Shown piece by piece: positions 42,122-64,000 of a stretch of DNA of 64,000 bases. Location: contig CAZJBS010000010.1 in the NCBI GenBank assembly GCA_964544475.1, positions 9,961 to 73,960 on the forward strand, written 5' to 3'. Numbering within the stretch: position 1 is the stretch's first letter; every line of letters begins with the position of its first letter. Source of the DNA: an uncultured Bacteroidota bacterium. Lineage in GTDB: Bacteria > CLD3 > SB21. Both the position numbers and the translations under genes were made by a program. Under the pieces are notes generated by a model that searched no databases, was not told the DNA's origin, and was given only the letters and a program-made list of their open reading frames with translations.

Positions 42122-45100
42122 CTACCTCGCGATCATCAGCTTTCCGATGGTGTGCGACTCGGAGGCATTGTCCAGTGATTTGACTTTGACCTTGTACAGG
42201 TAGACGCCATTCGCGAGACGGCTGCCGTCCTCATCCCTTCCGTCCCATGGTATGGAATTGTATCCAAAATTGGCCTGGCTGTCGAGCCGGCGAATCCTTT
42301 TACCCGATACCGTGTAAATGGTGATCTGGACCTCGGCGGCCGAGTGACTGACAACAAAGGTGAAGTTCGTTGAGGATCGGAACGGGTTGGGATAGTTCAT
42401 CAACCTGTCAATCTGGATGTGCGATTGATTGAAATCGCTGTCTTCGGTGTTGAGAACTTCAAAATTGAAACTTGCCGACGACGGATTATTGGCGTTATCG
42501 AAGGCGAGTATCCTGGCCGAATGTTTGCCAATAGCCAGTCCGGACAAGGTGACCTGCGCCGACCCGGAACGATAGGAGCCGACGTCGTAGGCAAAAGCCT
42601 CCGAAATATCATAGACGTGCCGGTCATCGATAATGGCCTGAAACTGGTGACCCATCGCGCCCGTGACATTGATGCCGGAGGAATCCCGGAGAACGATTTT
42701 CATGGTTGGCGTCCGTCGTACGGCATCACCCGACGCAAAGGATTGTCCCTCAAATTCTATCTGTATCGAAGGTCCGGTTGTGTCGGCCAGAACAGCTGAG
42801 ACGGAGTCGATGACAATCTGTCTGCTTGAACCGCCGGCATAGACTTCTCCGTCCGCTCCGTAAGCAATGACCGAGCCCTGTTTGTAGCTGTAACTGATAT
42901 CCCTGGGGGTCACAAACGTGGTGGAAAAAGTACCGTCGGTCACGCGGACTCTTCCGCGATACAATACCGGCGGTTCCAGGGCATACGTGATGCGCTGATT
43001 CACATCTGACGTGTATGTCTTTGCCAGCGACCGGTCGAAAACGGAAACGAGAAGGGTTCCGTTAAAATCGGTGTCAATGATCCCGGGTTGCCCTTCCACA
43101 GAACCCGTCAATGTGACCGGACTTAAAGCCGTCAGCACGGCCGGCTGTGCCAGATTGAAGCGGACATTCCGCGTTGCATAATGAATGTCGGCGGCCGGAT
43201 CGCCAAGATAATTGTACTTCTGCTTGTTGTCCTGATCGGAGAATCTTTCGACTTTTCCAAGGCGAATGGCTTCACCAATATTGCCCTGCACTTTCAGGTA
43301 TTTGAAAATGGAGGTCATCAAGTTAGTATTATTAACAGCGAAAACAGCTCGTGTCGCCGCCAGCAGACCAAAGCAACCCCGCTCTTTGGCCACGACGAGC
43401 TCTTCACCGCCACCTTGGACGTTCAGTTGATCAAACATGGCAAAAGAACAGGAGAAGTTTGTGAACAGGAAGTACTTGTCACGGTTTACTATCAACGGAA
43501 AATCGCGCGCATGCAAATAAACTTCCTCGTGGGCCAGTTGCCTAGGATTGCCGTGGCCGACATAGTTAATGATCAGAGCGCCCTGGTTGATTCTCTCAAT
43601 CAGAGCGTCTCTTGCCAGGATTTTCCGGCGGCGCGTCCCGGCCCATTCGTACGGATAGTCGATCAGATAGATTTTGTCCTGAATCAGATACGAGGGAATC
43701 TTGGTTGTATCGACGGCGAGACTTTCGGTCGGCTCCGTGTGCAGACTCAGTTCGTGAATACTCTGGTCGGCAATCTCGTCATCGGCAACGAAGGCAATCG
43801 TCTGTCGCCAGGCCGCCTGAGTCGACTGGGTTTCATGGAAGATAGTTTTCGTGATGCAGTTCGAGGCCTCATCCACCGTATTGCATGGTATCCGCCCGAT
43901 GCTGATGTCCGGTGACGCCAATTGGAAATAGGGAAACGCATACGGCTCGTCGATCGTGAATGCCACGGACACATCATTGATCCATGTGAACGCCTCGTCG
44001 ACCTGGCGATTGTACAGGAAGTACCCCGCTTCTGGCGAGTCATTGTGGATATAGTACGTGGGCACCCAATTGTGATTGGATCGGACCACAATGTGGCGAT
44101 AGTCGTAATCGGCATCTCCCAGCAGCAGAACGTGGGAAAGCCGGTCGCCTCTGTTGGGGGTTTGCCAGCGATAATAGGCATACCGAAGGAAGTCCCGTAT
44201 GGCCGTAGGATCCGGAATGCCCGCGGCAAATTCGTCAAAGATGTCCTGAACGTCGACAACCATGGTCTTGAAGCCGTTGTAGGCGGAGCGATGCTGAGCC
44301 AGCCGGTCAGCCTCATCCATGAAAGCCCGCGGCGTGATGATAACATAGTCGGCGGAATTGGCGGCGCTCTGCAGGTCGGAATTACGATCCCGTTCGACCT
44401 TCGATTTTGAAACGGATTTGGTCCTGGAGGTTGAAAACACGTGATAGCGTTTCGGCGATCCAATATTGGTTGTGTCGCTGAAGGTGACAGTGCCCGCACC
44501 GGTGGATCGCTGGATTTCCCTGGTGGACCAGGGCGTCGTGATATCCCAGACCTTTACTTTTCCCGGATCGGCATCGCGCGTGTTGATCGTGTACTGGTAA
44601 TTGCCGGCGGCAATGGGCGAGAAAACCGCCAGTTCGCCATCTCTCATAATGAGCATCCGGTCGTATTGGATCTCAAACCAGTCCAGAGCGGCCTGGCTTC
44701 CGGATGACGTCGGCTGATACGTCACGGAAAGCCGCCCCTGCGAAATCTGGGAAAGCGGTATCGAGAATGACAGGAATTTGGCGGCCGCGTACGAAAAGAC
44801 GGACGTCGTATACGGACCATTGTTGTCGACCATGACGGAGAAACGGTGTTGGGACGATTTGTTGTTGGCGCCCTTGAAACGAACCGTGTAGTCGGCCGCG
44901 GTGCCGGTCAACGGATCCTTGATCAGTCCTCCGGAGGGCATGTCCGACGATGCCGGGTACGTGGCGTTTTGCCCGCTCGTCAGGAGATCGAAAACCCATA
45001 GCAATCCGGATTCGTGAAAATTCGTCTCGTCTTTTTCAAAATGAAAATTGTCGCGGAATGAACCCTGCGGCGCAGGGTTGTCGCCGGTCGAAGCGCGTGT

Positions 45101-46216
45101 TTCCATCCGGAGACCATCCACGCCATCATTGAACGTCAGCCAATAAATATTCTCTTCACTGTAGTAATTCAGTTGATAGACATGCTTATTGCGAGAGGGA
45201 TCGAATTTCCAATAACGATTTCCCCTTCCATAAAAAAGGACATAGTCGTTGTTGTCGAATTTGCCGTCGGATTCGCCTTCTACGACTATCGCATTTTCCC
45301 GGAGAGCCAGGCCCGACACGCCGACCGGATCGGACGGGTTGGACAAATCCAGTCCCGCCGGCAGGACCGGCAGCAAGCCGCCTCCGTTGTTGTAGATTTT
45401 TATCGTACTCGGATCGATGGTGGACGCGCTGATGCCCAGGCTTTCAAAGAAGGTCTTGTCCAGTTTGTATACGCCTTCTTCGGTGATCCGGATCTTATAC
45501 CAATCACCTGTGTTCATCCCATTGGACGTTTTCCTCAGCATGGCGGAAGCCGCACGCACCTTAAACTGTGCGGCCGATGGATGATTCAGGAAAAGGTTAT
45601 CGGCCGTGGACTTCTCCGTTCGGCCGGCCTGCCGGTAAGCCACGCGTTGGTTTCCGGGAGTGAACACAACCGTTACGGTGAGTTTTTTGTAAAGACGAAG
45701 CCGTTTTTGAACGGGATTGTATCGGACCGGATACACGTTGACATACACGGTATTCCAATCCTGCAGGAGATTCGGCGAGGTGGCGACCGCCGGTGTGGAA
45801 GGAATCCACGCATCCCGCCGGTAGGATTCTCCTTCGACATATTCAACGGATGTCAACATCTGATCCTCAAACGAGGGCAAGCCCACCGGCCGCAACCGGA
45901 CATCCGTCCACTCGACGCTTTCACCTTCGGACACGGTCACCTGAGCCTGCGAGCCAACAGGCAGGGCCAGCAAAAAGCTCCGGTAGGGCAATTCGGGCTC
46001 CATCGCCTTTGACTCCAACTCAAAGTCAGGACCCAGGCGAACCACAGAGTACGACGCGTTTTCGGCCTCAAACGTCTCGATGGGACAGGTTTCCGTCGAT
46101 AGGACGAACCCGCATCCCTGTTCATTCGACCAGAGCAACTCCGTCTTTGACTGCGCAACGCCGCTTGCCGAAAATCCGGCAAAGGCCAAACAAAGCAATA
46201 ATAATATTCTTGCCAT
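42122..46216 (-). CDS. porU: Type IX secretion C-terminal signal peptidase PorU (C25 gingipain-like peptidase family)
   Basis: About 1365 aa from MARILLLLCLAFAG. Central C25-like region (DYVIITPRAFMDEADRLAQHR ... VLLLGDADYDYRHIV ... NYVGHGNP). C-terminal T9SS tail NYPNPFRSSTNFTFVV ... GVYLYKVKVKS. Confidence 0.65.
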   Translation of the reverse strand: MARILLLLCLAFAGFSASGVAQSKTELLWSNEQGCGFVLSTETCPIETFEAENASYSVVRLGPDFELESKAMEPELPYRSFLLALPVGSQAQVTVSEGESVEWTDVRLRPVGLPSFEDQMLTSVEYVEGESYRRDAWIPSTPAVATSPNLLQDWNTVYVNVYPVRYNPVQKRLRLYKKLTVTVVFTPGNQRVAYRQAGRTEKSTADNLFLNHPSAAQFKVRAASAMLRKTSNGMNTGDWYKIRITEEGVYKLDKTFFESLGISASTIDPSTIKIYNNGGGLLPVLPAGLDLSNPSDPVGVSGLALRENAIVVEGESDGKFDNNDYVLFYGRGNRYWKFDPSRNKHVYQLNYYSEENIYWLTFNDGVDGLRMETRASTGDNPAPQGSFRDNFHFEKDETNFHESGLLWVFDLLTSGQNATYPASSDMPSGGLIKDPLTGTAADYTVRFKGANNKSSQHRFSVMVDNNGPYTTSVFSYAAAKFLSFSIPLSQISQGRLSVTYQPTSSGSQAALDWFEIQYDRMLIMRDGELAVFSPIAAGNYQYTINTRDADPGKVKVWDITTPWSTREIQRSTGAGTVTFSDTTNIGSPKRYHVFSTSRTKSVSKSKVERDRNSDLQSAANSADYVIITPRAFMDEADRLAQHRSAYNGFKTMVVDVQDIFDEFAAGIPDPTAIRDFLRYAYYRWQTPNRGDRLSHVLLLGDADYDYRHIVVRSNHNWVPTYYIHNDSPEAGYFLYNRQVDEAFTWINDVSVAFTIDEPYAFPYFQLASPDISIGRIPCNTVDEASNCITKTIFHETQSTQAAWRQTIAFVADDEIADQSIHELSLHTEPTESLAVDTTKIPSYLIQDKIYLIDYPYEWAGTRRRKILARDALIERINQGALIINYVGHGNPRQLAHEEVYLHARDFPLIVNRDKYFLFTNFSCSFAMFDQLNVQGGGEELVVAKERGCFGLLAATRAVFAVNNTNLMTSIFKYLKVQGNIGEAIRLGKVERFSDQDNKQKYNYLGDPAADIHYATRNVRFNLAQPAVLTALSPVTLTGSVEGQPGIIDTDFNGTLLVSVFDRSLAKTYTSDVNQRITYALEPPVLYRGRVRVTDGTFSTTFVTPRDISYSYKQGSVIAYGADGEVYAGGSSRQIVIDSVSAVLADTTGPSIQIEFEGQSFASGDAVRRTPTMKIVLRDSSGINVTGAMGHQFQAIIDDRHVYDISEAFAYDVGSYRSGSAQVTLSGLAIGKHSARILAFDNANNPSSASFNFEVLNTEDSDFNQSHIQIDRLMNYPNPFRSSTNFTFVVSHSAAEVQITIYTVSGKRIRRLDSQANFGYNSIPWDGRDEDGSRLANGVYLYKVKVKSLDNASESHTIGKLMIAR

Positions 46217-46412
46217 ATAGGACAACAACGCTGGTTTTATGGAACTCTCGTGAGGAAAGAGAGACTTCAATCAGATCCTTTTCATCAATAACAACAAACA
46301 AGAACAGAAAGTTATTGTATCAAAGCGACCGATTGGTTCTCCTTTTATGGCGGTTTATTGGGCTGAGTGCAATATAGAAGCCTGCGCCAGTATTGTCAAG
46401 TACATTAAACGG

Positions 46413-53728: not shown

Positions 53729-54876
53729 GGCCGGCTTCTTTCGTTCAGGAGGTTCAGGGCCCACGCCAGGCTCTGGCGCAGCGCCCGGCGGTCGTGCCAT
53801 TCGAATAGTCCGGCTTTGCCGATGTCACGCAACAGCACCAGCCGGAGCCGGCCGTCGCGCTTTTTTTTGTCATGGTCCATCCGGCGAATAACGTCTCCGG
53901 CGTCGACGCGGCGAAGGAACGACCGGACCGGTTTTTGCGAGACCACCTGCGCCAGCGGCCGCTCTATCGTCATCAGAATGGTTTCCAGATCGTCCTCGCC
54001 GATCAGGCCGGCCTGTAACGACAGATACGACGCCGCGAGCATGCCGATCCAGACGGCTTCCCCGTGGCGGATTGCCGAAAACCCGCCGGCGCTCTCCAGC
54101 GCATGCCCGAACGTGTGCCCGAAATTGAGGATCATCCGCCTGCCGGCGTCTTTTTCATCCTTTGCCACGACACCGGCCTTGAGGCGCACGCTTTCGCGGA
54201 TGGCTTTCCGGACGACGGGGCCGCGGCTCATCAGGGCCGCATGATGTTTTCTGAGCCATTGAAAAAAAGACGCATCGACGGCCAGACCGTACTTGAAGAC
54301 TTCGGCGAGGCCCGCCAGGTATTCGCGATCGGGCAATGTGTCCAGAAACGCCGTGTCCGTGAGGACCAGCGACGGCTGGTGAAAGACGCCGATGATATTT
54401 TTGGCCAATGGATGGTTGACGGCGACTTTGCCGCCGACGGAACTGTCCACCATCGCCAGCAGAGTCGTGGGCGCCATGACGAGCGGCACGCCGCGCATGT
54501 AGGTGGCCGCCACAAATCCCGCGAGATCGCCGATGACGCCGCCGCCCAGCGCCACGATAACGCTGTCCCGGTCCGCCCCGGCGGTGATGAGACGCGTGTG
54601 AAGATCGAACGCGCGGTCATACGTTTTGAAGGCTTCCCCATCGGGCACCATGAGGATGCGCGCGTCCAGGGCGCGAAACACCGGACGCAGCCGGGGACCA
54701 TGCCGCCGGAGAATGACCGGATTGGTGATGACAAAAAAACGAAACGCGCGGACGGTGCGACGGATCAGCCGGTCCAGACGCGATACGGCGTCGAAAACCA
54801 CCGGGTAGGTGTGACGTCCGGCGCGGACGGTCAGCATGCGGGCCGTCGTGGGCAACGTGGGCGCGGGATCATACAT
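53725..54876 (-). CDS. aroB: 3-dehydroquinate synthase
   Basis: Motifs GGGVIGDLAGFVAATYMRGV, VDSSVGGK and the HTFGHALE metal-binding His pair. The start could instead be the ATG at 54837, which would avoid the 8-nt overlap with ychF. Confidence 0.8.
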   Translation of the reverse strand: MYDPAPTLPTTARMLTVRAGRHTYPVVFDAVSRLDRLIRRTVRAFRFFVITNPVILRRHGPRLRPVFRALDARILMVPDGEAFKTYDRAFDLHTRLITAGADRDSVIVALGGGVIGDLAGFVAATYMRGVPLVMAPTTLLAMVDSSVGGKVAVNHPLAKNIIGVFHQPSLVLTDTAFLDTLPDREYLAGLAEVFKYGLAVDASFFQWLRKHHAALMSRGPVVRKAIRESVRLKAGVVAKDEKDAGRRMILNFGHTFGHALESAGGFSAIRHGEAVWIGMLAASYLSLQAGLIGEDDLETILMTIERPLAQVVSQKPVRSFLRRVDAGDVIRRMDHDKKKRDGRLRLVLLRDIGKAGLFEWHDRRALRQSLAWALNLLNERSRP

Positions 54877-55963
54877 TGAACTTGAAGTGCATCACATCGC
54901 CGTCGCGCACGACGTAGTCGCGGCCTTCGGTGCGGAGAAGACCTTTGTCGCGGCAGGCCTGTTCGGTTTTGTATTTCACATAGTCCTCCCACCAGATCAC
55001 ATCGGCGCAGATGAATCCCCGTTCAAAATCCGAATGGATCGTGCCGGCCGCCTGCGGGTTTTTGGCGCCGCGATGAATGGTCCACGCGCGCACTTCGTCG
55101 GGACCCGCCGTCAGGAAACTCACGAGGTCGAGCAGTACGTAGGTTTCACGGATCAGCGTGTGCAGGCCGGGTTCCTTCAGGCCGATGCTTTCCAGGAAGG
55201 CCGTGCGCTCCTCCGCGGGGAGTTCCGATATTTCCGCTTCGATTTTTCCCGAGATGACGACCACGCGGGCGTTTTCGCGCGACGCGATGGTCCGTACGGT
55301 CTCGACGTACCGGTTGCCGGACAGGACGTCCTGCTCGGATACGTTGCAGATGTAGAGCACGGGTTTGTCGGTCAGGAGGAAGAGGTCGGCGACGTGGTGT
55401 TTTTCCGTTTCGGAAAGGCGGAGCAGGCGGAGCGGTTGGCCGGTGTCGAGATGGGATTTGACGCGCGACAGCGCTTCCACGGCGGCTTTGGCGTCCTTGT
55501 CGCCGGTCTTGGCGGTGCGCTCGGTCTGGGGAAGGCGTTTCTGCACGCTTTCGAGATCCTTGAGCACGAGTTCGGTATGGATGATATCGATGTCGCGGGC
55601 CGGATCGATGCTGCCTTCGACGTGCACGACGTCGGGGTCATCGAAGCACCGCACGACGTGGCCGATGGCGTCGACTTCGCGAATGTGGCTCAGGAACTGG
55701 TTGCCGAGGCCTTCGCCCGCATTGGCGCCTTTGACGAGACCGGCGATATCGACGAAATTGACGGTGGTATAGATGGTTTTTTTCGGTTTCAGCAAAGCCG
55801 ACAGCTGGTCGATGCGGTGGTCCGGCACGATGACGACGCCGACGTTTGGTTCGATGGTGCAGAACGGGTAATTGGCCGCCGCCGCGCCGGCCGCGGTCAG
55901 GGCATTGAATATCGTGGATTTTCCGACATTGGGCAGTCCGACAATTCCGCAATGTAGAGGCAT
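54869..55963 (-). CDS. ychF: Redox-regulated ATPase YchF (Obg-family GTPase)
   Basis: 364 aa. G1 motif GIVGLPNVGKST, a TGS domain and the C-terminal YchF domain. Confidence 0.9.
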   Translation of the reverse strand: MPLHCGIVGLPNVGKSTIFNALTAAGAAAANYPFCTIEPNVGVVIVPDHRIDQLSALLKPKKTIYTTVNFVDIAGLVKGANAGEGLGNQFLSHIREVDAIGHVVRCFDDPDVVHVEGSIDPARDIDIIHTELVLKDLESVQKRLPQTERTAKTGDKDAKAAVEALSRVKSHLDTGQPLRLLRLSETEKHHVADLFLLTDKPVLYICNVSEQDVLSGNRYVETVRTIASRENARVVVISGKIEAEISELPAEERTAFLESIGLKEPGLHTLIRETYVLLDLVSFLTAGPDEVRAWTIHRGAKNPQAAGTIHSDFERGFICADVIWWEDYVKYKTEQACRDKGLLRTEGRDYVVRDGDVMHFKFNV

Positions 55964-56132
55964 GACGCGGGCAACTCCTTCATGGAACGTATGTTTTCAA
56001 AAGACGCGCTAAAGTAGTCGTTCCCGCGAAGAAAATAAAGGAGAATGTGCCGCGCCGGCGTAAAAAACGCCGCGCGGAGTTTCCCGGGCGGCGCGAAAAA
56101 AAAGTGAAACGATTAATTCCTTGACAACCATC

Positions 56133-56162
56133 GGAGCGTGCGCTAACTTGGAACAGCTATCG
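56133..56162 (+). promoter_or_regulatory. Weak sigma-70-like promoter candidate for the first island gene
   Basis: TTGACA, then a 17-bp spacer, then TAACTT. The -10 is poor, so this is a low-confidence call. Confidence 0.2.
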
Positions 56163-56278
56163 CTATCGGGTTATCGTATGAATTCCAGAACAGACTATTT
56201 CAGCGTCGAAATTTTTCACGTCCGGCGGCAGGCTATGGCCGGCCAAGCCAGAACAGCCAGGAACAAAATAACCGACAT

Positions 56279-57049
56279 ATGTCGTCTATCACGCCCAAAA
56301 TGAGAAGATATACGACATGGATCATTCGTTTATGCAATAGTTATCCGACATGGCCCTCGACGAAGAAACACATGAGCGGAGATACTAAACCTGGTGTTCC
56401 TCATCAAACTCTTGGGGACGCAGCCCACGCGCTTCTGAAAGGAACTATCGGCAGTGTTCCGGTAGGCGGTGCTCTTGCTGCGGAATTTTTTAGTTTCGTA
56501 CTAAAACCTCCCATGCAGAAGCGAATGGAGGACTGGATGGCCGACCTGGTTCAGAGGCTGACCGAGATGAAGATGTCGATCGACGATTTGCAAGAGAACC
56601 AGCGTTTCGTCACAAATACACTGCAATCTCTGCGTATTGTTCAAATGACACACTCACCTGAGAAGCTCAGAGCCTTACGGAATGCAGTTCTCAATTCAAT
56701 CGCGCCACCGCCTTTCGACGAATCCTTGGAACAGGTGTTCCTTTCGTATGTTGATTCTTTCACTGATTACCATATTAGGTTTCTTGCTATGATCGCGGAA
56801 CCGAATTGGCCGATCAAACAACGCAAGGTGGTTACCTCACCTGACGCAAATCTTTATGAAATCATCTACCATCACTTTCCGCAGCTGCAAGGATCATCGT
56901 TTGTCACTCAAGTCTTTCAGGATTTGAACGCGCGTGGGCTGCTGGAACCCAACTGGGACCGTGGCTTTAAGCTAAGCTGGAGTAGTGGATATCCGGTGTT
57001 GTCTCCACTCGGAAGATCGTTTCTCAAGTTCATTTCGGAGGCTGAGTAG
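56279..57049 (+). CDS. Hypothetical protein (first gene of the lower-GC island)
   Basis: 256-aa ORF with alternative in-frame starts at 56300 and 56372 (MSGDTKPGV...). The 56279 ATG lies inside a perfect palindrome, cgacatatgtcg. No family recognised. Confidence 0.5.
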   Translation: MSSITPKMRRYTTWIIRLCNSYPTWPSTKKHMSGDTKPGVPHQTLGDAAHALLKGTIGSVPVGGALAAEFFSFVLKPPMQKRMEDWMADLVQRLTEMKMSIDDLQENQRFVTNTLQSLRIVQMTHSPEKLRALRNAVLNSIAPPPFDESLEQVFLSYVDSFTDYHIRFLAMIAEPNWPIKQRKVVTSPDANLYEIIYHHFPQLQGSSFVTQVFQDLNARGLLEPNWDRGFKLSWSSGYPVLSPLGRSFLKFISEAE

Positions 57050-57067
57050 ATGTCTCGGGCCACGTCC

Positions 57068-57234
57068 GATAACATGCGTGCACACGATTGGTCGCCCCGA
57101 CGCGAGCGTCAGATGCCCCCGGCCACGATTTTTGTGCGTCGGGGCTCCCCTACGGCGCACCGCGCGGAACGAATTGAAAACAAATTCATTGATACCGCTT
57201 GTGCGCCGCAGCGTGTGCACGCAGACCGTTATGT
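57068..57234 (+). repeat. attC-like imperfect palindromic element 1
   Basis: 5' end GATAAC-a-tgcgtgcacacg and 3' end cgtgtgcacgca-gacc-GTTATGT. The terminal 12-mers are inverted repeats. It contains an internal 10-bp hairpin (gccccgacgc / gcgtcggggc). It lies in the gap after the first island gene. Confidence 0.45.
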
Positions 57235-57243
57235 GCAATGCCG
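57089..57243 (+). repeat. 155-bp direct repeat, copy A (about 88% identical to 62580..62733)
   Basis: Aligned by eye: tggtcgccccgacgcgag[c/t]gtcagatgcccccggc ... cgaattgaaaacaaattcattgataccg ... cagcgtgtgcacgc ... gttatg[t/c]gcaatg, with a few substitutions and one indel. Confidence 0.8.
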
Positions 57244-57301
57244 CCTAAAAATATGAACAAACCGCACGCCATCATTCTCAACATACATAGGAGAACGTAA
57301 A

Positions 57302-57811
57302 GTGAAATCAAAGACGAACGAGGTTGTCAAGAAACTTCGTGAACTCAACACGATAATAAAATCACTGGATCCTTCTATCCGGCCGCAGTCTTTTGAATTG
57401 CTCCGTCCAGTCTTCTTCAGCGATGAGCCTGAGCACGAGCGAGATCAACGAGACCAGCAAACAGAGACGGCTGGCAAGTCAACAGGCACTCACAACAAAG
57501 AAAAGTTTTTCGGGTCGTTTGATCACAAAAAGCCCAGTGATAACGTCTTCTTGATTGCAGCATGGCTCTACTCCCAACACGGAGTTTTTCCACTCACATC
57601 AGATACTATTAAGGCGGTGGCGGACGAAACAGGTGTCACTGTTCCCGGTAGGCCAGATATGACCCTCAAAGCGGCTCAAAAAAAGGCAAAGCACCTATTT
57701 TCCAAACAAGGCGCTGGTTATAAACCAACTGTTCACGGTGAGACGTTCCTCAAAGACACATATCGAGTCAAGAAAGGAAACAGCCCCATACCAAAGGAGC
57801 CTGAGAATTGA
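57302..57811 (+). CDS. Hypothetical protein, upstream partner of the HEPN-motif protein
   Basis: 169 aa. Its stop overlaps the next gene's start by 4 bp. The C-terminal roughly 70 aa (FLIAAWLYSQHG ... LTSDTIKAV ... GAGYKPTVHGETFLKD) resemble the N-terminal domain of the downstream protein, so the two share a domain. Confidence 0.5.
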   Translation: MKSKTNEVVKKLRELNTIIKSLDPSIRPQSFELLRPVFFSDEPEHERDQRDQQTETAGKSTGTHNKEKFFGSFDHKKPSDNVFLIAAWLYSQHGVFPLTSDTIKAVADETGVTVPGRPDMTLKAAQKKAKHLFSKQGAGYKPTVHGETFLKDTYRVKKGNSPIPKEPEN

Positions 57812-58551
57812 CAATAGTCGAGTTTCTACATCCAATACTGAGATCACCGCACCGGGACCTTTGTGTTGCGGCTCTGTATTATTCGAAAAGATTCCAACAG
57901 TCTGATTCATTAACCGTCGATCAAATTCGTTCGTTGCTTAGAAGAGCTCGTGTTCCAAGTGTTAATAACATCAACATAGCAGACGTGCTTGCTAAATCAG
58001 CTCCTCATGTCGACAGTGCTGGCAAGAAAGGAAAAGCTTTTCTTTGGGCGATCACTTCGTCAGGCGAAAAGCACATACGAGCCTTGCTAAATATTCCTGA
58101 GGTCGATATTGCAACGGTCCATGAGGTCGGCACACTTGAGCGCCTTATCAACTCCATCGGTGATCCTGATGTGGCCAACTATCTAACAGAAGCAGTCACT
58201 TGCCTACGTGTTGACGCTCTTCGTGCCTCTATCGTGTTTCTGTGGGCTGGCGCCGTTCGTACCATTCAAAAGGAAATGATCGATCTTGGCGCGTCCTCAG
58301 TTGACACCGCCTTAAAGAAATTCGACCCCAAATCCCGGTCGATCAAAGGGCTAGACGACTTTGCGTATGTCAAGGATTCGACAGTGCTTCTAGCAGCCCA
58401 AGAACTTGCCATCTTTGACAAGAATGAGCGGTCCACACTCGAGGAGGCTCTGAACTTAAGGAACAAATGTGGTCATCCCAGTAAGTATCGACCTGGCCCG
58501 AAAAAGGCTGCAAGTTTTATTGAAGACGTCACAACCATCGTTTTTTCTTGA
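57808..58551 (+). CDS. HEPN-motif protein (predicted RNase, toxin or abortive-infection type)
   Basis: 247 aa, apparent TTG start. C-terminal R-N-x-x-x-H motif (LNLRNKCGHP, about nt 58459-58476) inside a predicted helical domain, matching the HEPN Rx4-6H signature. N-terminal domain is shared with the preceding gene. Confidence 0.5.
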   Translation: MTIVEFLHPILRSPHRDLCVAALYYSKRFQQSDSLTVDQIRSLLRRARVPSVNNINIADVLAKSAPHVDSAGKKGKAFLWAITSSGEKHIRALLNIPEVDIATVHEVGTLERLINSIGDPDVANYLTEAVTCLRVDALRASIVFLWAGAVRTIQKEMIDLGASSVDTALKKFDPKSRSIKGLDDFAYVKDSTVLLAAQELAIFDKNERSTLEEALNLRNKCGHPSKYRPGPKKAASFIEDVTTIVFS

Positions 58552-58580
58552 GATGGCGTGCGGTTGATAGCGGCACTGCA

Positions 58581-58724
58581 CATAACAGGCCGCACTACGA
58601 CGTTCGCTCATTTGATATGGCGATAAGAAAGCTGTGCAAGAAACAAAAGTGCTCACTCAATGGCTAACCATTCCGCTATTGCTCCATTCGTTAGCTACTG
58701 CGTAGTGCGGCCGGAACGTTAGGC
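58581..58724 (+). repeat. attC-like imperfect palindromic element 2 (best-preserved copy)
   Basis: 5' CATAAC-a-ggccgcactacg and 3' cgtagtgcggcc-ggaac-GTTAGGC. The 12-bp arms are perfectly complementary. The 3' end is a canonical attC core sequence GTTRRRY (GTTAGGC), and the 5' end is an inverse-core-like ATAAC. Confidence 0.5.
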
Positions 58725-58752
58725 GGCATGTCCACGAATCTGAGTATTACAT

Positions 58753-59340
58753 ATGAACCTATTCACAACTGAAGCCCTGCGGCTATTTGTTGTCTTTTTC
58801 GTACCTGGCTTCATTTCAATGCGTGCTTTCTCCCTACTAGTCGCGTCTGAAAGACATGATTTTTCAAAATCATTGGTCGAAGCAATCGCATTTAGTTGCT
58901 TAAACTTTGCTCTTCTTTACTGGCCCATGAGTGTCATCCATTCGAATGATTTTGCTCATCAGTACCCAATACTATACTACCTCAGTGCTCTGGGTATTCT
59001 GTTAGTTGCACCGTGTGCTTGGGCATGGTTGTTCTATCGAATTATGATTTCTGACTGGTACTCGAAACGATTTCGAGACCCTTACCCAACTCCATGGGAC
59101 AGCTTTTTCGCTCGCGGAGAAGCATGTTGGGTAGTTATCCACCTAAAGAGTGGCAGGAAGATTGGTGGTATTTATTCTGGACGCTCTCGCGCATCAGCTT
59201 ATCCGACCGAACAACAAGTCTATCTCGAAGAAGTGTGGGAGGTGGATCAGAAGACCCAACGCTTTCTACGTAAGAAGAATCGGACAGCTGGACTTATAAT
59301 CAGCAGATCAGAGATGACTCACATTGAGTTCTACAGTTAA
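58753..59340 (+). CDS. Hypothetical membrane protein (3 TM helices plus C-terminal soluble domain)
   Basis: 195 aa. Hydrophobic segments LRLFVVFFVPGFISMRAF, AIAFSCLNFALLYWPMSVI and LYYLSALGILLVAPCAWAWLFY. No family recognised. Confidence 0.5.
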   Translation: MNLFTTEALRLFVVFFVPGFISMRAFSLLVASERHDFSKSLVEAIAFSCLNFALLYWPMSVIHSNDFAHQYPILYYLSALGILLVAPCAWAWLFYRIMISDWYSKRFRDPYPTPWDSFFARGEACWVVIHLKSGRKIGGIYSGRSRASAYPTEQQVYLEEVWEVDQKTQRFLRKKNRTAGLIISRSEMTHIEFYS

Positions 59341-59354
59341 GAAAGGATCCGCCA

Positions 59355-59525
59355 ATGGCAGACGAGACGAAAAACACGAATTCCTCTAACGTTCCGAAAT
59401 CGGACGAAAACAAGGGCTCAATCAAGGCGGGACGAGATATCAAAGAGAGTTACAGCCCACGCAACGAGCTCGATACTTCTAAACCGCCGCAGGGAGATGG
59501 TACATCAAAAAAGGACGATAAGTAA
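59355..59525 (+). CDS. Candidate 56-aa hydrophilic, low-complexity small protein
   Basis: ATG 14 nt after the membrane protein stop, preceded by gaaaggatcc (Shine-Dalgarno-like). It encodes MADETKNTNSSNVPKSDENKGSIKAGRDIKESYSPRNELDTSKPPQGDGTSKKDDK, predicted disordered. Not in the ORF track (shorter than 60 aa). Confidence 0.25.
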   Translation: MADETKNTNSSNVPKSDENKGSIKAGRDIKESYSPRNELDTSKPPQGDGTSKKDDK

Positions 59526-59540
59526 GAGCGTGGACTCGCC

Positions 59541-59716
59541 GCATAACAGGCGAGCACACGTTCGCTCGCGGCGTGCTCATTCCCGTCGGGTGCACGCCGC
59601 TTCGCACACGGCGCACCGACGATTTTCGATTGGAGATTATGAATAGATTTGATCTATGAAGAACGATGAAACCAAGATTGGCGGGCGCCGCGTCGTGTGC
59701 TCGCGAACCGTTATGC
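59541..59716 (+). repeat. attC-like imperfect palindromic element 3
   Basis: 5' GCATAAC-a-ggcgagcacacg and 3' cgtgtgctcgcg-aacc-GTTATGC. The arms are inverted repeats. It shares an internal 11-mer, acggcgcaccg, with element 1. Confidence 0.45.
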
Positions 59717-59755
59717 GCAGTTTGCCCGACTGATCACAACCACCAAGGTGCTAAA

Positions 59756-62098
59756 ATGAAACACTTTGCAGAAGTACTTCAAACTCTCGGCGCGAGTAAA
59801 ATCGAGCCACTTTCTGAAACTCAGCATTGGGACTTCTGGAAGGCAGTCTACTCGACTCCAATCTCCGAAGTGAGCGGCTACTATCTATATTTGAAATCGA
59901 GCTGTCCTTGGAAAGAAGGGAACAACAGGGCAAATTGGGACACATGGCAAAAACCTTCAAAGGGAAACTACGAAATTATTGTAACGCCGGCCAGTGACTT
60001 CATAAGGAAGCCCAGTCAAACTATTGCAGCCTTCAAGGGAACTCGCGTGAGAACATCGAAGGAACTCTTGCTGAACAATTTTGTGAAGAGCCTCACACTG
60101 GAAGAAATAATATCAGAGGAAAATTTCATCGACCCGACACTTGAACTTGAGAACGGTCGCGTGAGCCAGGATACCACACACTTTCTCATCTCTTGGATCA
60201 AGGGACGGGATAGTGCAACCAAAGGTGTATCCATTGCAGCTTTGGTTGCTGATGGCGGCGTTGGCAAAACCACAGTGTCTCGTGTACTGAGTCGATCTCT
60301 CCATGAGGACGATCCGACTGTTATCCCTATCCTCATAGAATCCGATCAATGGCGGCATCTGCTTAACACGCCTATTTCGCTTAGCAACCTTTGGGACTTG
60401 GCCATCTCACGGCGCTTTCAGAATGCCGCTAGACTGTTGTCTAATGAAATGGCTTTTCGCGTTCTCGTAAGGGAAGGACTCTTTGTAATCATCTTCGACG
60501 GTTTTGATGAACTTTGCGTTAATTCTTATGCTGTGTCGCGTCCCAAAGAAATTATCGACGAGCTTATAACCCTCCTGTCGCCTGAAGATGAGCCCGTACA
60601 AGCAAAAATTGTATTAACAGCCCGCAGCACGTTCTGGGAGTCATTGGCAGATGAAATCGAGCTTAAGGACATCGAGACATTTTACCTTCGGGGGTTCGAT
60701 AATGATCAACGCAAGAGCTATTTCGACAAAACGCTAACCACTCACGAAGAAAGAGACATTGCAAATCGTTTGTCTCGACAGATTAGTGGAGCCATGTACG
60801 AAGGCATCAAACCTGAAGATCACAATTACGAAAGACCTTCCGGAGTACCATTTATCTTGAGCCTAATCGCCCAGTACGTCCGGGGCAGTGTCCATTTGAT
60901 TGAGGTAAATCCATACATGGCGGACCCGTTGGAGCGTCTCCTCGAAGATATCTGTCGTCGAGAAAACCTTCGACAATCACTTGACATCGAGCCCACAAAA
61001 CAATTAGAGCTTTTTGAGGAACTCTTCCGGGAATATCAGGAATCAATCCAACTAACCGATTTGCAAATGTATCTTGACGTAATCTGCAACATCAACGACA
61101 AAGAGACCGCCAACCGGTTCACGAACCATGTTTTCCTAACTCGCACTGAAAAAGACACTTTTGGGCCGCGCTATGAAGTCCTCCGAGTATACTTTATAGC
61201 ACGCTTCCTTGCCAAAGGCCTGCTTGAGCTGACGACAAAAACTCCTCGACAACAAATCGCACGGTTGCTGGCAAAGAACAGCACCGGAAAGACCCAGGTC
61301 ATCGACTGGCTTATCTTGCAATTGCGTAATTTGGAACAAACAACCCTCATAAGGTCAATACACCACGCACTAGCCATTATTCGCGATCAAGATAACCGTT
61401 CTACGCTCTCTCAGTCTTCTTCGGCGATTTTCCATGTTGTTTCCAGCCTCATCTCGGGCGGCGACAAAGATGAACGCACTCGTCTACTCTGTGATTTCTA
61501 TAATATCGATAGAAGCGGCACAGTTGTTTTCAAGGCAGTTGTATTCGCAGGTGTGGTCCGGTCCTTCAGTTTTCGTGACGCAATCTTCGAGAAATGTGAA
61601 TTTTACGATGTCGAGTTTAAGAATTGCACTTTTGGCGATGCTTCTACATTCCGAACATGTAGCTTCTACGGAAATCTTAAATTTACTAATTGTTCAAATG
61701 CGGGCTCGATAAAAACACAGATCTGCACTTTTTCAAGGGAATCAGAGTTCGCACTTGATGTCATTAGAAACTCACACTCAAGAATGGAGCTAAAACGTTC
61801 TTTCGCAGAAGAAGCATTGTCCCGATCCCTTCGCAAGTTTCGAAAGGACAATCGGTTTATTCCTATCCAGTACGAGCACCGCAAGACTGGATTCAAGCCA
61901 GGCAACCCATATAACGAGACAGTGTGGCAGGAACTTGAACGAGCTGGGCTTATTCACTCTCATCACATATCTGGAGTCACCGGCGGAGGTCTCAACATTG
62001 TCGACGACAAGAACGTGCGACGAGAAGTGTCGTCCTTCCTGGACAATGGCGTACTTGGCAATTTGTTGACCAACGTGCTAACAAAAATGATCACATAA
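59756..62098 (+). CDS. STAND/NACHT-like P-loop NTPase with C-terminal pentapeptide-repeat region (antiphage-sensor-like architecture)
   Basis: Start placed at MKHFAEVLQ (ATG 59756, AAGGTG Shine-Dalgarno upstream), about 780 aa. Walker A ALVADGGVGKTTV (about nt 60254-60271). Walker B hhhhDGFDE (FVIIFDGFDEL, about nt 60497-60511). A long helical middle region. Pentapeptide-like repeats (AVVFAGVVRSFSFRDAIFEKCEFYDVEFKNCTFGDASTFRTCSFYGNLKFTNCSN, about nt 61580-61770). The N-terminal roughly 160 aa are of unknown function. Confidence 0.65.
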   Translation: MKHFAEVLQTLGASKIEPLSETQHWDFWKAVYSTPISEVSGYYLYLKSSCPWKEGNNRANWDTWQKPSKGNYEIIVTPASDFIRKPSQTIAAFKGTRVRTSKELLLNNFVKSLTLEEIISEENFIDPTLELENGRVSQDTTHFLISWIKGRDSATKGVSIAALVADGGVGKTTVSRVLSRSLHEDDPTVIPILIESDQWRHLLNTPISLSNLWDLAISRRFQNAARLLSNEMAFRVLVREGLFVIIFDGFDELCVNSYAVSRPKEIIDELITLLSPEDEPVQAKIVLTARSTFWESLADEIELKDIETFYLRGFDNDQRKSYFDKTLTTHEERDIANRLSRQISGAMYEGIKPEDHNYERPSGVPFILSLIAQYVRGSVHLIEVNPYMADPLERLLEDICRRENLRQSLDIEPTKQLELFEELFREYQESIQLTDLQMYLDVICNINDKETANRFTNHVFLTRTEKDTFGPRYEVLRVYFIARFLAKGLLELTTKTPRQQIARLLAKNSTGKTQVIDWLILQLRNLEQTTLIRSIHHALAIIRDQDNRSTLSQSSSAIFHVVSSLISGGDKDERTRLLCDFYNIDRSGTVVFKAVVFAGVVRSFSFRDAIFEKCEFYDVEFKNCTFGDASTFRTCSFYGNLKFTNCSNAGSIKTQICTFSRESEFALDVIRNSHSRMELKRSFAEEALSRSLRKFRKDNRFIPIQYEHRKTGFKPGNPYNETVWQELERAGLIHSHHISGVTGGGLNIVDDKNVRREVSSFLDNGVLGNLLTNVLTKMIT

Positions 62099-62131
62099 GG
62101 GATTTATAATGGCCGTGCGGTCGGGCAAACT

Positions 62132-62341
62132 GCGCATAACACGCGCATAAACCGTTCGTTCGGGCACTTGCTTTTGTGCGGTACCTGTGTCCCAATCTTT
62201 TGGGTAGTCAATCTGTAAACATTATGACCATTCAACAAAAAGTGCCCTCACCAACCATGCACGCGCCGCAAACAACAGCAGTTGAAGACTTTTATCAAAG
62301 GCGGCTTGTGCGTGGCTGCGGTTATACGCCGGACGTTAGGG
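62132..62341 (+). repeat. attC-like imperfect palindromic element 4
   Basis: 5' GCGCATAAC-acgcgcataaaccg, where the motif is tandemly reiterated, and 3' cggttatacgc-cggac-GTTAGGG. The arms are roughly complementary (gcgcataaaccg versus gcgtataaccg). Confidence 0.4.
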
Positions 62342-62579
62342 TTCCGTCGCACGACTTTTTTTCTTTCTCGACTTTGTTGGGGCTATGATGTAATTTGATC
62401 CTGTAAGTTCATTTCTTGGGGAGTAGCAAGTGGCTCTGGGTTCAGTTCTTTCGTGCATTTCAAGTCTCGTTCAGGAAAACGAATACCGCGCTCGTGCGAT
62501 TCGTACGGGGTTGAACGGTCATACCAGTTGCCGAGATTTCGATTGGGATTCCCGAATTCCTCCTCCCCGTGCCACGTCC

Positions 62580-62733
62580 TGGTCGCCCCGACGCGAGTGT
62601 CAGATGCCCCCGGCTGCGATTTTTGTGCGCCGGGCTTCCCTCGGCGCACGGCGCGGATCGAATTGAAAACAAATTCATTGATACCGATTGTGCACCGCAG
62701 CGTGTGCACGCGTGACGTTATGCGCAATGACTG
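62580..62733 (+). repeat. 155-bp direct repeat, copy B (about 88% identical to 57089..57243). A decayed attC-like element that keeps its 3' end.
   Basis: 3' end cgtgtgcacgcg-tgac-GTTATGC is retained. The 5' arm is degenerate (ccgtgccacg versus cgtgcacacg) and the ATAAC is lost (gaattc). The internal hairpin of copy A is disrupted here (gcgccgggc). Confidence 0.8.
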
Positions 62734-62755
62734 CGACCTGAGTCCCAACTAACTT

Positions 62756-63367
62756 ATGGCACCCTATCAGAGAATTCCCATATGGGAGAACCGGCTGCGC
62801 GTGAAGCGTCTTTGGCAGTTTCGAGAGGCTCTGCAACTGTACTTCGCCGCTTATTCAGCCTCGCGAGTATCGTTTAGCGATTCTCACAGACACCATCGCG
62901 TAACTGTGAACTTACAAATACACTCCGTCTATTCCATGGTTCAAGATGCAGGAATTGATACTTCGTTTTCTGGGCCTCATCGGTCATCATCTGTCACTCT
63001 TGATCGAAAGGCGGATCTTGTTCTAGACGTATTCTCTTTGGTAGATCTCAACATCGATCCCCAGTACCTTGGAGATTGTATTGTAAGAGCTATTGGTAAG
63101 TACAATGACGACCGCGCAAGAGCCGTTTTGCGAACGATCAATCCGTTGTTCTGGGCGGGTAAGCTGGTTGATGCCGTTCTTGATCTGCCATTGAAACTTT
63201 TGCGGAGCTTCGGTATCAAAGTACCCAAAATTGAAGACACACTTGCCGGCAGAGTTATTGGCGGACTGCTCAAGTCTGTGACTTATCTGGCCGCCTTTCT
63301 GACTGTCGCCGAAAAGCTGGGCTATCTTGAGACATTCAAAGGTTTTCTTAAATCTGCGTCACCCTGA
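62756..63367 (+). CDS. Hypothetical protein (203 aa)
   Basis: ORF about 20 bp downstream of repeat B. No family recognised. Confidence 0.5.
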   Translation: MAPYQRIPIWENRLRVKRLWQFREALQLYFAAYSASRVSFSDSHRHHRVTVNLQIHSVYSMVQDAGIDTSFSGPHRSSSVTLDRKADLVLDVFSLVDLNIDPQYLGDCIVRAIGKYNDDRARAVLRTINPLFWAGKLVDAVLDLPLKLLRSFGIKVPKIEDTLAGRVIGGLLKSVTYLAAFLTVAEKLGYLETFKGFLKSASP

Positions 63368-63436
63368 AACTGAGGGCGCAGTCAATGCGCATAACACCTT
63401 AAAAGAGTTCGAAGTCAATAGAAAAAGCCCTCCCGT

Positions 63437-63460
63437 GGCGACCGGGTCGCCTATTTTGTT
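63437..63460 (+). terminator. Rho-independent terminator downstream of the 62756..63367 gene
   Basis: ggcgacc-g-ggtcgcc perfect 7-bp stem followed by tattttgtt. It lies inside a candidate fifth palindromic element that is bounded by GCGCATAAC at 63387 and a weak GTTATCC at 63670. Confidence 0.45.
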
Positions 63461-63711
63461 GGCTTTTTGCTTCGATAACCGATGGGCCGACGCCTGGCAT
63501 GTCTTTACGAATGGTGAAGCAAGTTGCATCGACATCCATGACGATACGAATTGAAAATACGATTGAACCCATGGCCGAGACTTCACCCATGCCCTGCGCG
63601 AAGCCAAGGAATCCTCAAGGTAGGATTTGTCAGATGCGGCTTGCAGGGTACGGCGTGTATCGGCGGGACGTTATCCGACACCCCCAAAACAGTGCTCAAA
63701 AGAGGTATCAA

Positions 63712-64000
63712 ATGAATTTGCCAGAAGATCGTAATCGCACTTTATCCCAGTTTCGAGAAGGGCCGATGCTACTCGACAAGACTGTCAGCGATCTGCAAGA
63801 CTCCGAATTGGATCTCATTCCTACCGAAGGTGGATGGTCTATTCGACAGATCGTCCATCACATTGTGGATGGGGATGATATTTGGAAGTTTGGTATCAAG
63901 ATGGCCATTGGTAACGAACAGGCTGAATTTTCACTGGAATGGTACTCCTCACAGACGCAAGATACTTGGGCTGATCGATGGGCGTACACCCAAAGATCAA
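63712..64000 (+). CDS. DinB_2 (DinB/YfiT-like) family protein, 5' portion (runs off the window end)
   Basis: ATG at 63712. MNLPEDRNRTLSQFREGPMLLDKTVSDLQDSELDLIPTEGGWSIRQIVHHIVDGDDIWK contains the metal-binding His region typical of DinB_2. No stop before the window end. Confidence 0.55.
   Translation, partial: MNLPEDRNRTLSQFREGPMLLDKTVSDLQDSELDLIPTEGGWSIRQIVHHIVDGDDIWKFGIKMAIGNEQAEFSLEWYSSQTQDTWADRWAYTQRS

Follow-up and report, generated by a model that had tools for sequence, protein, structure and literature searches.

A complete integron comprises an intI gene, encoding a tyrosine recombinase that carries the IntI-specific insertion, situated within ~4 kb of a cluster of attC sites, together with an attI site and Pc. 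Crossover at G|TT produces chimeric sites, such that the start of a cassette complements the R'' box of the attC belonging to that same cassette. The Vibrio cholerae repeats (VCR) are an example of the attC found in sedentary chromosomal integrons. The attC consensus places the AAC of R'' and the GTT of R' within RYYYAAC and GTTRRRY, respectively (PMC5027507, PMC4889954). Clusters of attC lacking an integrase (CALINs) are recognised by the presence of two or more attC on the same strand, separated by at most 4 kb and without a neighbouring intI; such clusters are common, and attC are more alike within integrons than between them (PMC4889954). CALINs could plausibly arise through insertion into the genome at positions other than att sites (preprint 10.1101/2022.09.11.507474).

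The window analysed here, the whole 64 kb stretch of DNA under study, is from an uncultured bacterium, and an earlier note had drawn attention to a pair of direct repeats within it, A and B. The region from 56.2 to 64.0 kb is likely to be the proximal part of an integron-type gene-cassette array, lying on the + strand beside ychF, and A and B are two related attC sites, those of cassettes 1 and 5, rather than the two ends of one unit. A repeat pair that had lacked an explanation can thus be placed in a defined structure, made up of the first seven cassettes of the array; the kind of element is well known, with a somewhat unusual site geometry and an uncultured host. From 56.2 kb until the window ends, every gap separating the co-oriented genes is filled by one of at least six structured sites, in the order A, E, C, D, B, F. 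Five sites are intact and two degenerate, all on the + strand:

57067..57234, + strand: site A, which includes copy A; R'' CGATAAC (57067-57073), L'' GCGTGCACACG (57076-57086), centre 57087-57211 (125 nt), L' CGTGTGCACGC (57212-57222), spacer AGACC, R' GTTATGT (57228-57234)
58580..58724, + strand: site E; R'' ACATAAC, L'' GCCGCACTACG (58589-58599), centre 101 nt, L' CGTAGTGCGGC (58701-58711), spacer CGGAAC, R' GTTAGGC
59541..59716, + strand: site C; R'' GCATAAC, L'' GCGAGCACACG (59550-59560), centre 133 nt, L' CGTGTGCTCGC (59694-59704), spacer GAACC, R' GTTATGC
62134..62341, + strand: site D; R'' GCATAAC, L'' GCGCATAAACC, centre ~166 nt (by coordinates), L' GGTTATACGC, spacer CGGAC, R' GTTAGGG
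62572..62723, + strand: site B, of A type, which includes copy B; L', spacer GTGAC and R' GTTATGC (62717-62723) intact
63387-63395, + strand: F0, an orphan R'' word, GCGCATAAC
63473..63676, + strand: site F; R'' CGATAAC, interrupted L stems, spacer GGGAC, R' GTTATCC

The ~155 bp direct repeat pair is real: copies A (57089-57243) and B (62580-62733) align over 152 nt with 89.5% identity and a single 2-nt indel (blastn, E 6e-53), the identical runs quoted previously are found in both, and no further long direct repeats exist in the 64 kb. The longest identical run, of 28 nt, is central and holds a small inverted repeat, GAATT-N7-AATTC. Similarity ends abruptly at both edges and the flanks are not duplicated; on the assumption that 57068-57088 of A (21 nt) are missing from B, leaving a gap of that length, the homology extends 8 nt upstream, CCACGTCC (57060-57067 and 62572-62579). 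The conserved unit is, as had been supposed, non-coding, in that the indel shifts the frame and the ORFs crossing it have no Pfam match. Searching Rfam with the whole window at gathering thresholds returned nothing, and a search around copy A at E <= 10 gave noise only. Site C is a third, diverged relative, having a 3' 26-nt core and stem boxes in common with A and B and differing from A by a T>A / A>T pair of compensatory changes, and sites E, D and F are built to the same architecture from unrelated sequence.

The earlier note had A and B bracketing a 5.3 kb segment. That this segment is one unit is not supported: sites E, C and D, all of the same architecture, sit between them, and the 5.3 kb block therefore consists of four separate cassettes. 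It had also envisaged deletion or duplication of this block by homologous recombination between the copies, which is possible in principle, but no sign of it was seen: a contig from another sample (57193-62385) has the intervening genes in unchanged order. Barely credible is the idea that A and B are just remnants of a segmental duplication, relevant only as a substrate for such recombination. Direct repeats of ~150 bp with 90% identity could recombine at a low rate, although here the similarity halts exactly at the site borders, next to single-copy flanks, the longest identical run is only 28 nt, the block is intact in another sample and the full attC-like boxes are common to four non-homologous sites. 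The evidence essentially bears out the other alternative in the note, in which the pair is the duplicated recombination site of a family of mobile cassettes.

Both copies do lie just 5' of an ORF, at a distance of 22-58 nt, and this proximity, together with the inverted repeat in the 28-nt run, is what might be expected of a leader, in the form of a promoter/operator or structured 5' untranslated region co-regulating the downstream defence-like genes. We regard such a role as most improbable: besides the lack of an Rfam match, a scan of A and B for sigma-70-like promoters was empty, the substitutions in B destroy internal hairpins rather than keep them, interiors are unrelated among sites of the same architecture, and the gap between site and start codon varies from 28 to 67 nt. 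Conservation instead resides in a long-range stem and in AAC/GTT half-sites bearing a recombination footprint, not in sequence at a fixed distance, and the proposal of a leader is not supported.

The attC reading is grounded in the layout shared by the intact sites, ...TAAC-2 nt-L''(11 nt)...L'(11 nt)-5/6 nt-GTTA..., all five of which start ..ATAAC and end GTTA.., thereby presenting the AAC and GTT triplets, with unpaired spacers between the R and L boxes, of 2 nt in one arm and of 5-6 nt in the opposite arm. The R' word of site E fits GTTRRRY exactly; the others deviate from it at one or more of the degenerate positions, an example being GTTATGC, a word also present in a real class 1 site. 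The L''/L' stems of A, E and C, whose complementarity was checked directly on the sequences, are perfect over 11 bp though 6 of the 11 positions differ, all changes being compensated, and that of site D has nine pairs and one mismatch, its L'' arm bulging by 1 nt. The centre of site A is branched, forming a three-way junction with two hairpins, and the bottom strand of this site has a folding energy of -51.8 kcal/mol (z -7.8 relative to shuffles). Site F is the weakest of the intact sites (z -1.5). In site B, substitutions have broken and eroded the internal hairpins, the bottom-strand z is only -1.6, and R'' is absent, with AAC occurring nowhere within 62530-62600; B is probably dead, and with the loss of its R'', cassettes 5 and 6 have probably become fused, leaving cassette 5 no longer excisable alone.

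When the strict form of this geometry was sought, four matches were recovered, all on the + strand, all intergenic and all between 57 and 62.4 kb, as compared with 0.4 on average when the entire window was shuffled 200 times; the other 56 kb (~45 genes) had none, nor did the loci of relatives. A loose scan for AAC...GTT hairpins had no discriminating power (48 matches vs ~57 in shuffles) and was discarded. Long hairpins directly following stop codons, with a geometry unlike that of the known attC compared and with no integrase, could also be structured repeats having nothing to do with integrons (REPIN-, MITE- or IS200/IS605-derived, or mRNA-stabilising or terminator hairpins) in an accessory island. 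This explanation is highly unlikely on several grounds. Transposable copies would have common interiors, whereas E, D and F share stem architecture only; the sites are confined to the array; the stems have no 3' T-run and no target-site duplication was seen on inspection of the flanks; and the complementarity between the R' of one site and the R'' of the next would be left unexplained.

In attC sites, this last property is the trace left when cassettes insert at G|TT. The reverse complement of R' at each site matches R'' of the following site at 37 of 45 positions, against 20/45 for pairs within the same site, and the observed order is the unique best among 120 permutations of the sites. Individual examples include A R' with E R'' (8/9 positions), B R' with F0 (8/9) and C R' with D R'' (9/9, or 12/12 when extended). 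Three real class 1 arrays, used as a positive control, gave 41/63 for neighbours and 23/63 within sites.

Seven co-oriented cassettes of 0.38-2.6 kb are delimited in this way, with site-to-site distances of at most ~2.4 kb and sites that start 14-35 nt past the stop codons. All eight ORFs of the array read in the canonical direction (+), and its GC content is 48.0%, as against 55.0% in the housekeeping part of the window:

56170..56176, + strand: J0, the left junction of the array, GTTATCG, with the crossover G|TT at 56170/56171
56171..57228, + strand: cassette 1, an ORF at 56279-57049 (256 aa, no family) and site A
57229..58718, + strand: cassette 2, ORFs at 57302-57811 (169 aa) and 57808-58551 (247 aa) and site E
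58719..59710, + strand: cassette 3, a DUF6338 membrane protein (58753-59340), a 56-aa ORF (59356-59526) and site C
59711..62335, + strand: cassette 4 (2625 bp), a NACHT NTPase with pentapeptide repeats and site D
62336..62717, + strand: cassette 5 (382 bp), without a convincing ORF, ending in the defective site B
62718..63395, + strand: cassette 6, an ORF at 62756-63367 (203 aa, no family) followed by F0
63671..64000, continuing beyond the window, + strand: cassette 7, a DinB_2 family ORF from 63712 (PF12867, E 8.5e-10)

The two ORFs of cassette 2 overlap by 4 nt; there is a PF27235 match in this cassette in a precomputed annotation, and the 247-aa product has a C-terminal Rx4H HEPN-like motif. 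Translation of the NACHT NTPase begins at the ATG at 59756, its true start, giving 780 aa ending at 62098. A terminator-like hairpin is found at 63437-63451, between F0 and site F. Cassette boundaries can now be given for several defence-looking genes, namely the NACHT NTPase, the Rx4H HEPN-like pair and the DUF6338 gene. PADLOC models matched none of these, which makes them candidates for new cassette-borne functions. The reverse complement of J0 is identical at 7/7 positions to the R'' of site A (CGATAAC), and since it is without a hairpin partner, J0 resembles an attI-like or secondary (attG-like) insertion point. Upstream of it lie GCGCTAAC (56140-56147) and TTGACA-17 nt-TAACTT (56121-56149).

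In each of the five intact sites the bottom strand has the stabler fold of the two, by -1.3 to -5.6 kcal/mol, a bias that agrees with previous work (Nivina 2016, PMC5027507); among controls, 6/6 known attC have the same bias (-0.6 to -5.2 kcal/mol) and random segments of the window have a mean of 0.0 (sd 2.8). The letters flanking the half-sites, AAC|A in 5/6 sites and C|GTT in 6/6, are likewise those of known sites. Both observations bear on the possibility of the opposite polarity, under which the + strand would be recombinogenic, each site would belong to the ORF downstream of it, and the integrase and attI would lie beyond the right end of the window, with the genes facing the integrase. 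The extra unpaired bases, which in 5/5 sites are on the arm opposite the AAC of the + strand, the canonical position for a bottom strand, would accord with this arrangement, as would the absence of intI on the left, and the half-site footprint is compatible with either direction. We nevertheless consider it very unlikely, because the - strand is the stabler one in the manner of known bottom strands, the flanking letters fit + as the top strand, eight of eight ORFs have the canonical direction, and J0 has an R' word and no hairpin, as expected at an attI-proximal end.

With the - strand taken as the bottom strand, each cassette would consist of one gene or a short operon followed by its attC site. 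The single-stranded bottom strand of a site would fold through pairing of R' with R'' and of L' with L''; an integron integrase encoded elsewhere would cut at the bottom-strand AAC (equivalent to G|TT on +) and exchange strands with another site, allowing cassettes to leave as circles and then re-insert. The high similarity of A and B probably reflects common descent of attC made or propagated in one lineage, as for the near-identical attC of sedentary chromosomal integrons, rather than a role as two ends. We infer both that integrase recombination has acted here, in the past or at present, and which strand was used.

A validated IntI1 probe, run through tblastn and phmmer, detected no intI gene or remnant, nor any tyrosine recombinase, in any frame of the 64 kb (best E 2-3). 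The window does not contain a complete integron, and the right side of the array runs beyond it; on its left the array is flanked by 11 kb of housekeeping sequence (ychF, aroB, murJ etc.). On this evidence, because there is no integrase gene or remnant in the 64 kb, the array is a CALIN beside ychF, conditional on the sites being attC and on what the right flank holds beyond the window, where the 101 kb contig may carry an integrase.

The contigs of three other samples end at 56183, and in a lineage with a YchF of 93% identity the break falls at the same place. Other contig breaks occur in site A (57193), in site C (59591), just 5' of B (62562) and in cassette 5 (62385), and together the breaks argue for a variable region. 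The loci of the 86% and 82% relatives have no such sites. The nearest named relatives of YchF are only ~60% identical and belong to the Bacteroidota/Kapabacteria group. The collections scanned (reference genomes, metagenomes and plasmids) yielded no copy of the element from any other organism, and these particular cassettes are therefore only putatively mobile. The 28-nt core of A and B had no match in reference genomes, the 26-nt core of A, B and C had one chance match, within a coding sequence of a Lachnospiraceae member, in the metagenome collection as well as in that of genomes, and site A found nothing among plasmids (blastn). Relatives of the 256-aa ORF have only 30-32% identity and are located beside tRNA genes without attC, and the closest DinB homologue, at 85%, has an ordinary chromosomal context.

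[quoted passage not shown] The class 1 sites are 72-114 bp in length, whereas those of the window are 145-208 bp; the aac(6')-29a and blaVIM-2 sites have spacers of ~5 and 6 nt and single-base bulges on the L'' arm, where the R''-L'' spacer here is 2 nt. Unpaired bases on the left equal or exceed those on the right in 7/7 class 1 sites, while in the window the right exceeds the left by 2-4 nt in 5/5. Extrahelical bases on the L'' arm are absent from the L stems of A, C and E, and in D and F a lone single-base bulge occurs on the left, at a deeper position of the stem; some sites reportedly recombine efficiently without such extrahelical bases (Nivina 2016, PMC5027507). In the part considered, the published Spirochaetes attC model has single-base bulges modelled on the left arm of the L stem, unlike the sites here. 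The centres are variable in sequence and length, as is expected of attC, and branched, and at 101 (E), 125 (A), 133 (C) and ~166 nt (D) contrast with the 20-100 nt usual for the variable terminal structure (VTS) of attC.

That these departures (a 2-nt vs a 5-6-nt spacer, a bulge on the arm opposite the canonical one, a long and perfect L stem devoid of extrahelical bases and a 100-170 nt centre) define a distinct structural class of attC is doubtful. Were this so, and were strand choice set by the unpaired features, either a divergent integrase with other rules of strand selection would be implied, or the other strand would be recombined; the array would then represent, within a phylum that has been poorly sampled, a lineage of integrons whose site logic is altered and whose cassettes, such as that of the NACHT gene (2.6 kb), are unusually large. 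As site asymmetry is thought to guarantee cassette orientation, so consistent a departure from attC geometry merits a specialist look.

REP/REPIN and MITE families are also structured intergenic repeats just downstream of genes, but are distributed genome-wide, homologous over their full length and without half-site complementarity, whereas the sites here form one array with mostly unrelated interiors. CALINs offer a closer likeness, having cassettes of unknown function and low attC similarity within a cluster (PMC4889954), as here, though CALIN is an operational IntegronFinder call and the window's array is likened to it by definition. Sedentary chromosomal integrons typically have several near-identical attC per array alongside unrelated cassette genes (PMC4889954), a degree of similarity here limited to A and B (90%) and, more loosely, C; the extrahelical L-stem bases are mostly absent here and no integrase is in view. 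Their cargo is of unknown or defence-like function (preprint 10.1101/2024.07.02.601686), like that of the present array, and their attC, in common with the sites described here, are imperfect palindromes after each cassette ORF with terminal AAC/GTT half-sites, R and L stems and a variable centre.

Copies A (57089-57243) and B (62580-62733), the direct repeats reported in the earlier note, align over 152 nt with 89.5% identity and a single 2-nt indel (blastn E 6e-53), their similarity ending abruptly at both flanks; no further long direct repeats were found in the window. ORFs crossing the repeats are shifted in frame at the indel and matched no Pfam family, and no Rfam match was obtained at either gathering or permissive thresholds, so both the pair and the non-coding nature of the conserved unit are confirmed. 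The proposal of a single 5.3-kb unit bounded by the pair was not borne out, as three further sites (E, C and D) lie between A and B; the alternative reading, in which the repeat is the recombination site of a family of mobile cassettes, is judged to have been right.

With A as the blastn query, a third relative was found at 59685-59719 (83% identity, E 5e-5), and a 26-nt pattern built from the 3'-end sequences of A, B and site C, the last lying directly upstream of a NACHT gene, matched exactly those three positions and none in shuffled sequence. An inverted-repeat search identified long-range 11-nt arms in A (GCGTGCACACG / CGTGTGCACGC) and C (GCGAGCACACG / CGTGTGCTCGC), which differ from one another by compensatory change, and a perfect arm pair of unrelated sequence at 58589-58599 / 58701-58711. 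The remaining intergenic gaps share one layout, in which ...ATAAC is followed after 2 nt by an 11-nt arm and, beyond a long centre, the complementary arm is followed after 5-6 nt by GTTA...; its boxes are termed R'' (AAC side), L'', centre, L' and R' (GTT side).

Structured sites, with boundaries checked on the sequence
57067-57234, + strand, site A
58580-58724, + strand, site E
59541-59716, + strand, site C
62134-62341, + strand, site D
63473-63676, + strand, site F

L'' and L' are fully complementary in A, E and C despite 6 of 11 positions differing among these sites. A loose definition of the architecture gave no excess over chance (48 matches, versus approximately 57 in shuffles). A strict geometry (TAAC, 2 nt and a 9-mer, then its complement, 5/6 nt and GTTA, with at most two mismatches) matched only A, E, C and D, all of them on the + strand and intergenic, within the interval 57-62.4 kb, compared with a mean of 0.4 matches in 200 dinucleotide shuffles, although this test is post hoc, its definition being derived from the same data. 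No strict match occurred in the other 56 kb of the window or in the relatives' loci.

A test independent of this definition is provided by the footprint of recombination. Integron cassettes insert through crossover at G|TT, and, at a cassette's left end, the bases that follow GTT originate in the cassette's own attC. Hence the left end is expected to be complementary to the R'' of the site that comes next downstream, rather than to that of the site it now occupies. Across nine positions outside the triplet at five junctions, the reverse complement of each R' matched the following R'' at 37/45 positions (J0 to A, 6; A to E, 8; E to C, 6; C to D, 9; B to F0, 8), against 20/45 for R'/R'' pairs of the same site, and the observed order was the sole best among all 120 assignments. 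For example, GTTATGTGC is present in A only and GCACATAAC in E only, while GTTATGCGCAGT of C is complementary to ACTGCGCATAAC of D at 12/12 positions. Three class 1 integron arrays, found with an IntI1 probe 100% identical to plasmid IntI1, served as a positive control and gave 41/63 matches with the next site versus 23/63 within the same site. The rule also picks out J0, the left junction of the array (GTTATCG at 56170, the complement of CGATAAC in A), and F0, an orphan R'' word at 63387-63395 after the 203-aa ORF.

Several features together make the + strand the top (coding) strand, the canonical arrangement. The - strand fold is the more stable in all five intact sites, by -1.3 to -5.6 kcal/mol, where the strand difference of random window segments averages 0.0 (sd 2.8). 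Known attC sites folded likewise had the more stable bottom strand in 6/6 cases, in agreement with Nivina et al. (PMC5027507). The triplet neighbours AAC|A and C|GTT agree with known sites if + is the top strand, all ORFs of the array are on this strand, and J0 has no hairpin, as expected for the attI-proximal end.

Probable cassettes of the array
56171-57228, + strand, cassette 1: 256-aa ORF
57229-58718, + strand, cassette 2: 169-aa and 247-aa ORFs
58719-59710, + strand, cassette 3: DUF6338 and a 56-aa ORF
59711-62335, + strand, cassette 4: NACHT/pentapeptide, 780 aa
62336-62717, + strand, cassette 5: no ORF
from 62718, + strand, cassette 6: 203-aa ORF
from 63671, + strand, cassette 7: DinB_2, cut by the window edge

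The GC content of the array is 48.0%, against 55.0% in the housekeeping part, and no cassette protein matched a PADLOC model. The true start of the NACHT gene is ATG 59756, in line with the calls of two public assemblies, and not 59666; the mechanical 810-aa ORF from the latter position, with 59666-59755 as extra sequence, begins within site C. At 2625 bp, cassette 4, with its NACHT and pentapeptide-repeat regions, is unusually large for an integron cassette, exceeding the roughly 2 kb implied by Ghaly et al. for the largest annotated example. The two ORFs of cassette 2 (57302-58551) overlap by 4 nt, and the 247-aa product ends in LRNKCGH, an Rx4H HEPN-like motif; its precomputed match to PF27235 (AF_1680) was not reproduced with a local Pfam copy. 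The pair may represent a two-gene toxin or defence cassette. Cassette 5 (382 bp, GC 53.7%) contains no convincing ORF and may be a non-coding cassette or remnant. The sole homologues of the 256-aa ORF are distant (30-32%), on short contigs at L013 (about 1000-1090) and L014 (about 800-900), adjoining sequences judged by eye to be tRNA-like, which would fit these copies being island-borne rather than cassette-borne.

Site B lacks an R'' box, there being no AAC in 62530-62600. By alignment with A, either 21 nt (57068-57088 in A) would have been deleted, or L'' may have degenerated and the upstream sequence been replaced. Where A and B differ within the two internal hairpins, every substitution breaks a pair and none is compensatory: H1 falls from 10/10 pairs in A to seven plus one G-T in B, and H2 from 8/8 to 7/8. 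The fold z-score of B is -1.6, no better than shuffles, versus -7.8 for A. The preferred reading of site B is an attC in decay, with its cassette now fused to the next one. The F0 word, GCGCATAAC, complements R' of site B, and the matching L'/R' is absent; a terminator-like hairpin and its T-run lie downstream at 63437-63451. The region 63387-63451 looks like a second degenerate site, and cassettes 5 and 6 may have become fused, together with the sequence as far as site F.

Searching all six frames of the window with IntI1 (tblastn and phmmer) returned only noise (best E 2-3); this covers the window alone, and the array runs off its right edge (source contig, 101 kb). In the terms of Cury et al. 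(PMC4889954), the part in view would rank as a CALIN, an attC cluster lacking an integrase, provided that the sites are indeed attC. The 11 kb on the left side of the array carry housekeeping genes, among them ychF, aroB, a Lon-domain gene and murJ. A 373-aa ORF at 54836-55957 (+), wholly opposite ychF, was rejected as a gene, being a shadow ORF of the sort common in GC-rich coding sequence. Integrases have been documented to insert cassettes at genomic positions that are not att sites, and such events have been put forward as one origin of small clusters lacking an integrase (preprint 10.1101/2022.09.11.507474); were the array seeded in this way, it would account for J0 lying in the upstream region of ychF. 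Just before J0, TTGACA-17 nt-TAACTT (56121-56149) points into the array, below the promoter-scan threshold, and an R''-like word, GCGCTAAC (56140-56147), lies 22 nt before the junction; the former could serve as a cassette promoter, and the latter could be a site that has collapsed or resembles attI. In three independent samples with identical ychF (L004-L006), contigs all end at 56183, 13 nt past the G|TT of J0, and three more from a 93%-identical sister lineage (L008-L010) break approximately 231 nt upstream of ychF, which suggests that a variable or repeated region has a common starting point in the two lineages. Breaks in other contigs fall within sites A (57193) and C (59591), immediately upstream of B (62562) and in cassette 5 (62385). 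These breaks fit a repeated, variable region, short of proof for cassette exchange.

The geometry of the sites departs from that of known attC. When unpaired bases were counted by forcing the R box to pair and then walking the main stem, the R''-L'' arm of seven class 1 sites had at least as many as the other arm (5/4, 2/2, 7/1, 6/3, 6/4, 5/3 and 4/4), most having single-base bulges on the left, which are the extrahelical bases. A published attC model for Spirochaetes, in the part compared here, likewise has its modelled single-base bulges on the left side of the L stem. The window sites are skewed the other way (left/right 1/4 in A, 1/4 in C, 3/5 in D and 6/8 in F, with a 4-nt bulge on the R' side of E in an unconstrained fold), because their spacer is 2 nt rather than the approximately 5 nt of known sites read in detail. 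An L-stem bulge is absent from A, C and E, with one each in D and F. Centres of 101 nt (E), 125 nt (A), 133 nt (C) and, by coordinates, approximately 166 nt (D) exceed the usual 20-100 nt of Cury et al. (PMC4889954). Because the comparison drew on no more than seven class 1 sites and a single published model, this unusual geometry is not taken as proof of a new attC class. We consider it likely that the window sites are integron-type attC sites; the main reservations are the missing integrase and the unusual spacer geometry.

Hints of the host's lineage come from a Peptidase_C25 protein with a FlgD_ig domain (42122-46270) and from PorV and Por_Secre_tail genes in an 86% relative (L011), which hint at a type IX secretion system and so at the FCB group; the nearest named YchF relatives are only approximately 60% identical. 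In the classical picture of sedentary chromosomal integrons, some attC sites of an array are highly similar while their cassette genes are unrelated. The similarity of A and B, alongside unrelated cassette genes, resembles this arrangement, and attC likeness is known to be greater within than between integrons (PMC4889954). Integrons are known from Chlorobi, Chloroflexi, Planctomycetes, Spirochaetes and other phyla (PMC4889954), and defence cargo is established in chromosomal cassettes (preprint 10.1101/2024.07.02.601686). Taken with the likeness to sedentary chromosomal integrons, this phylum spread and cargo make the array an element of a known kind.
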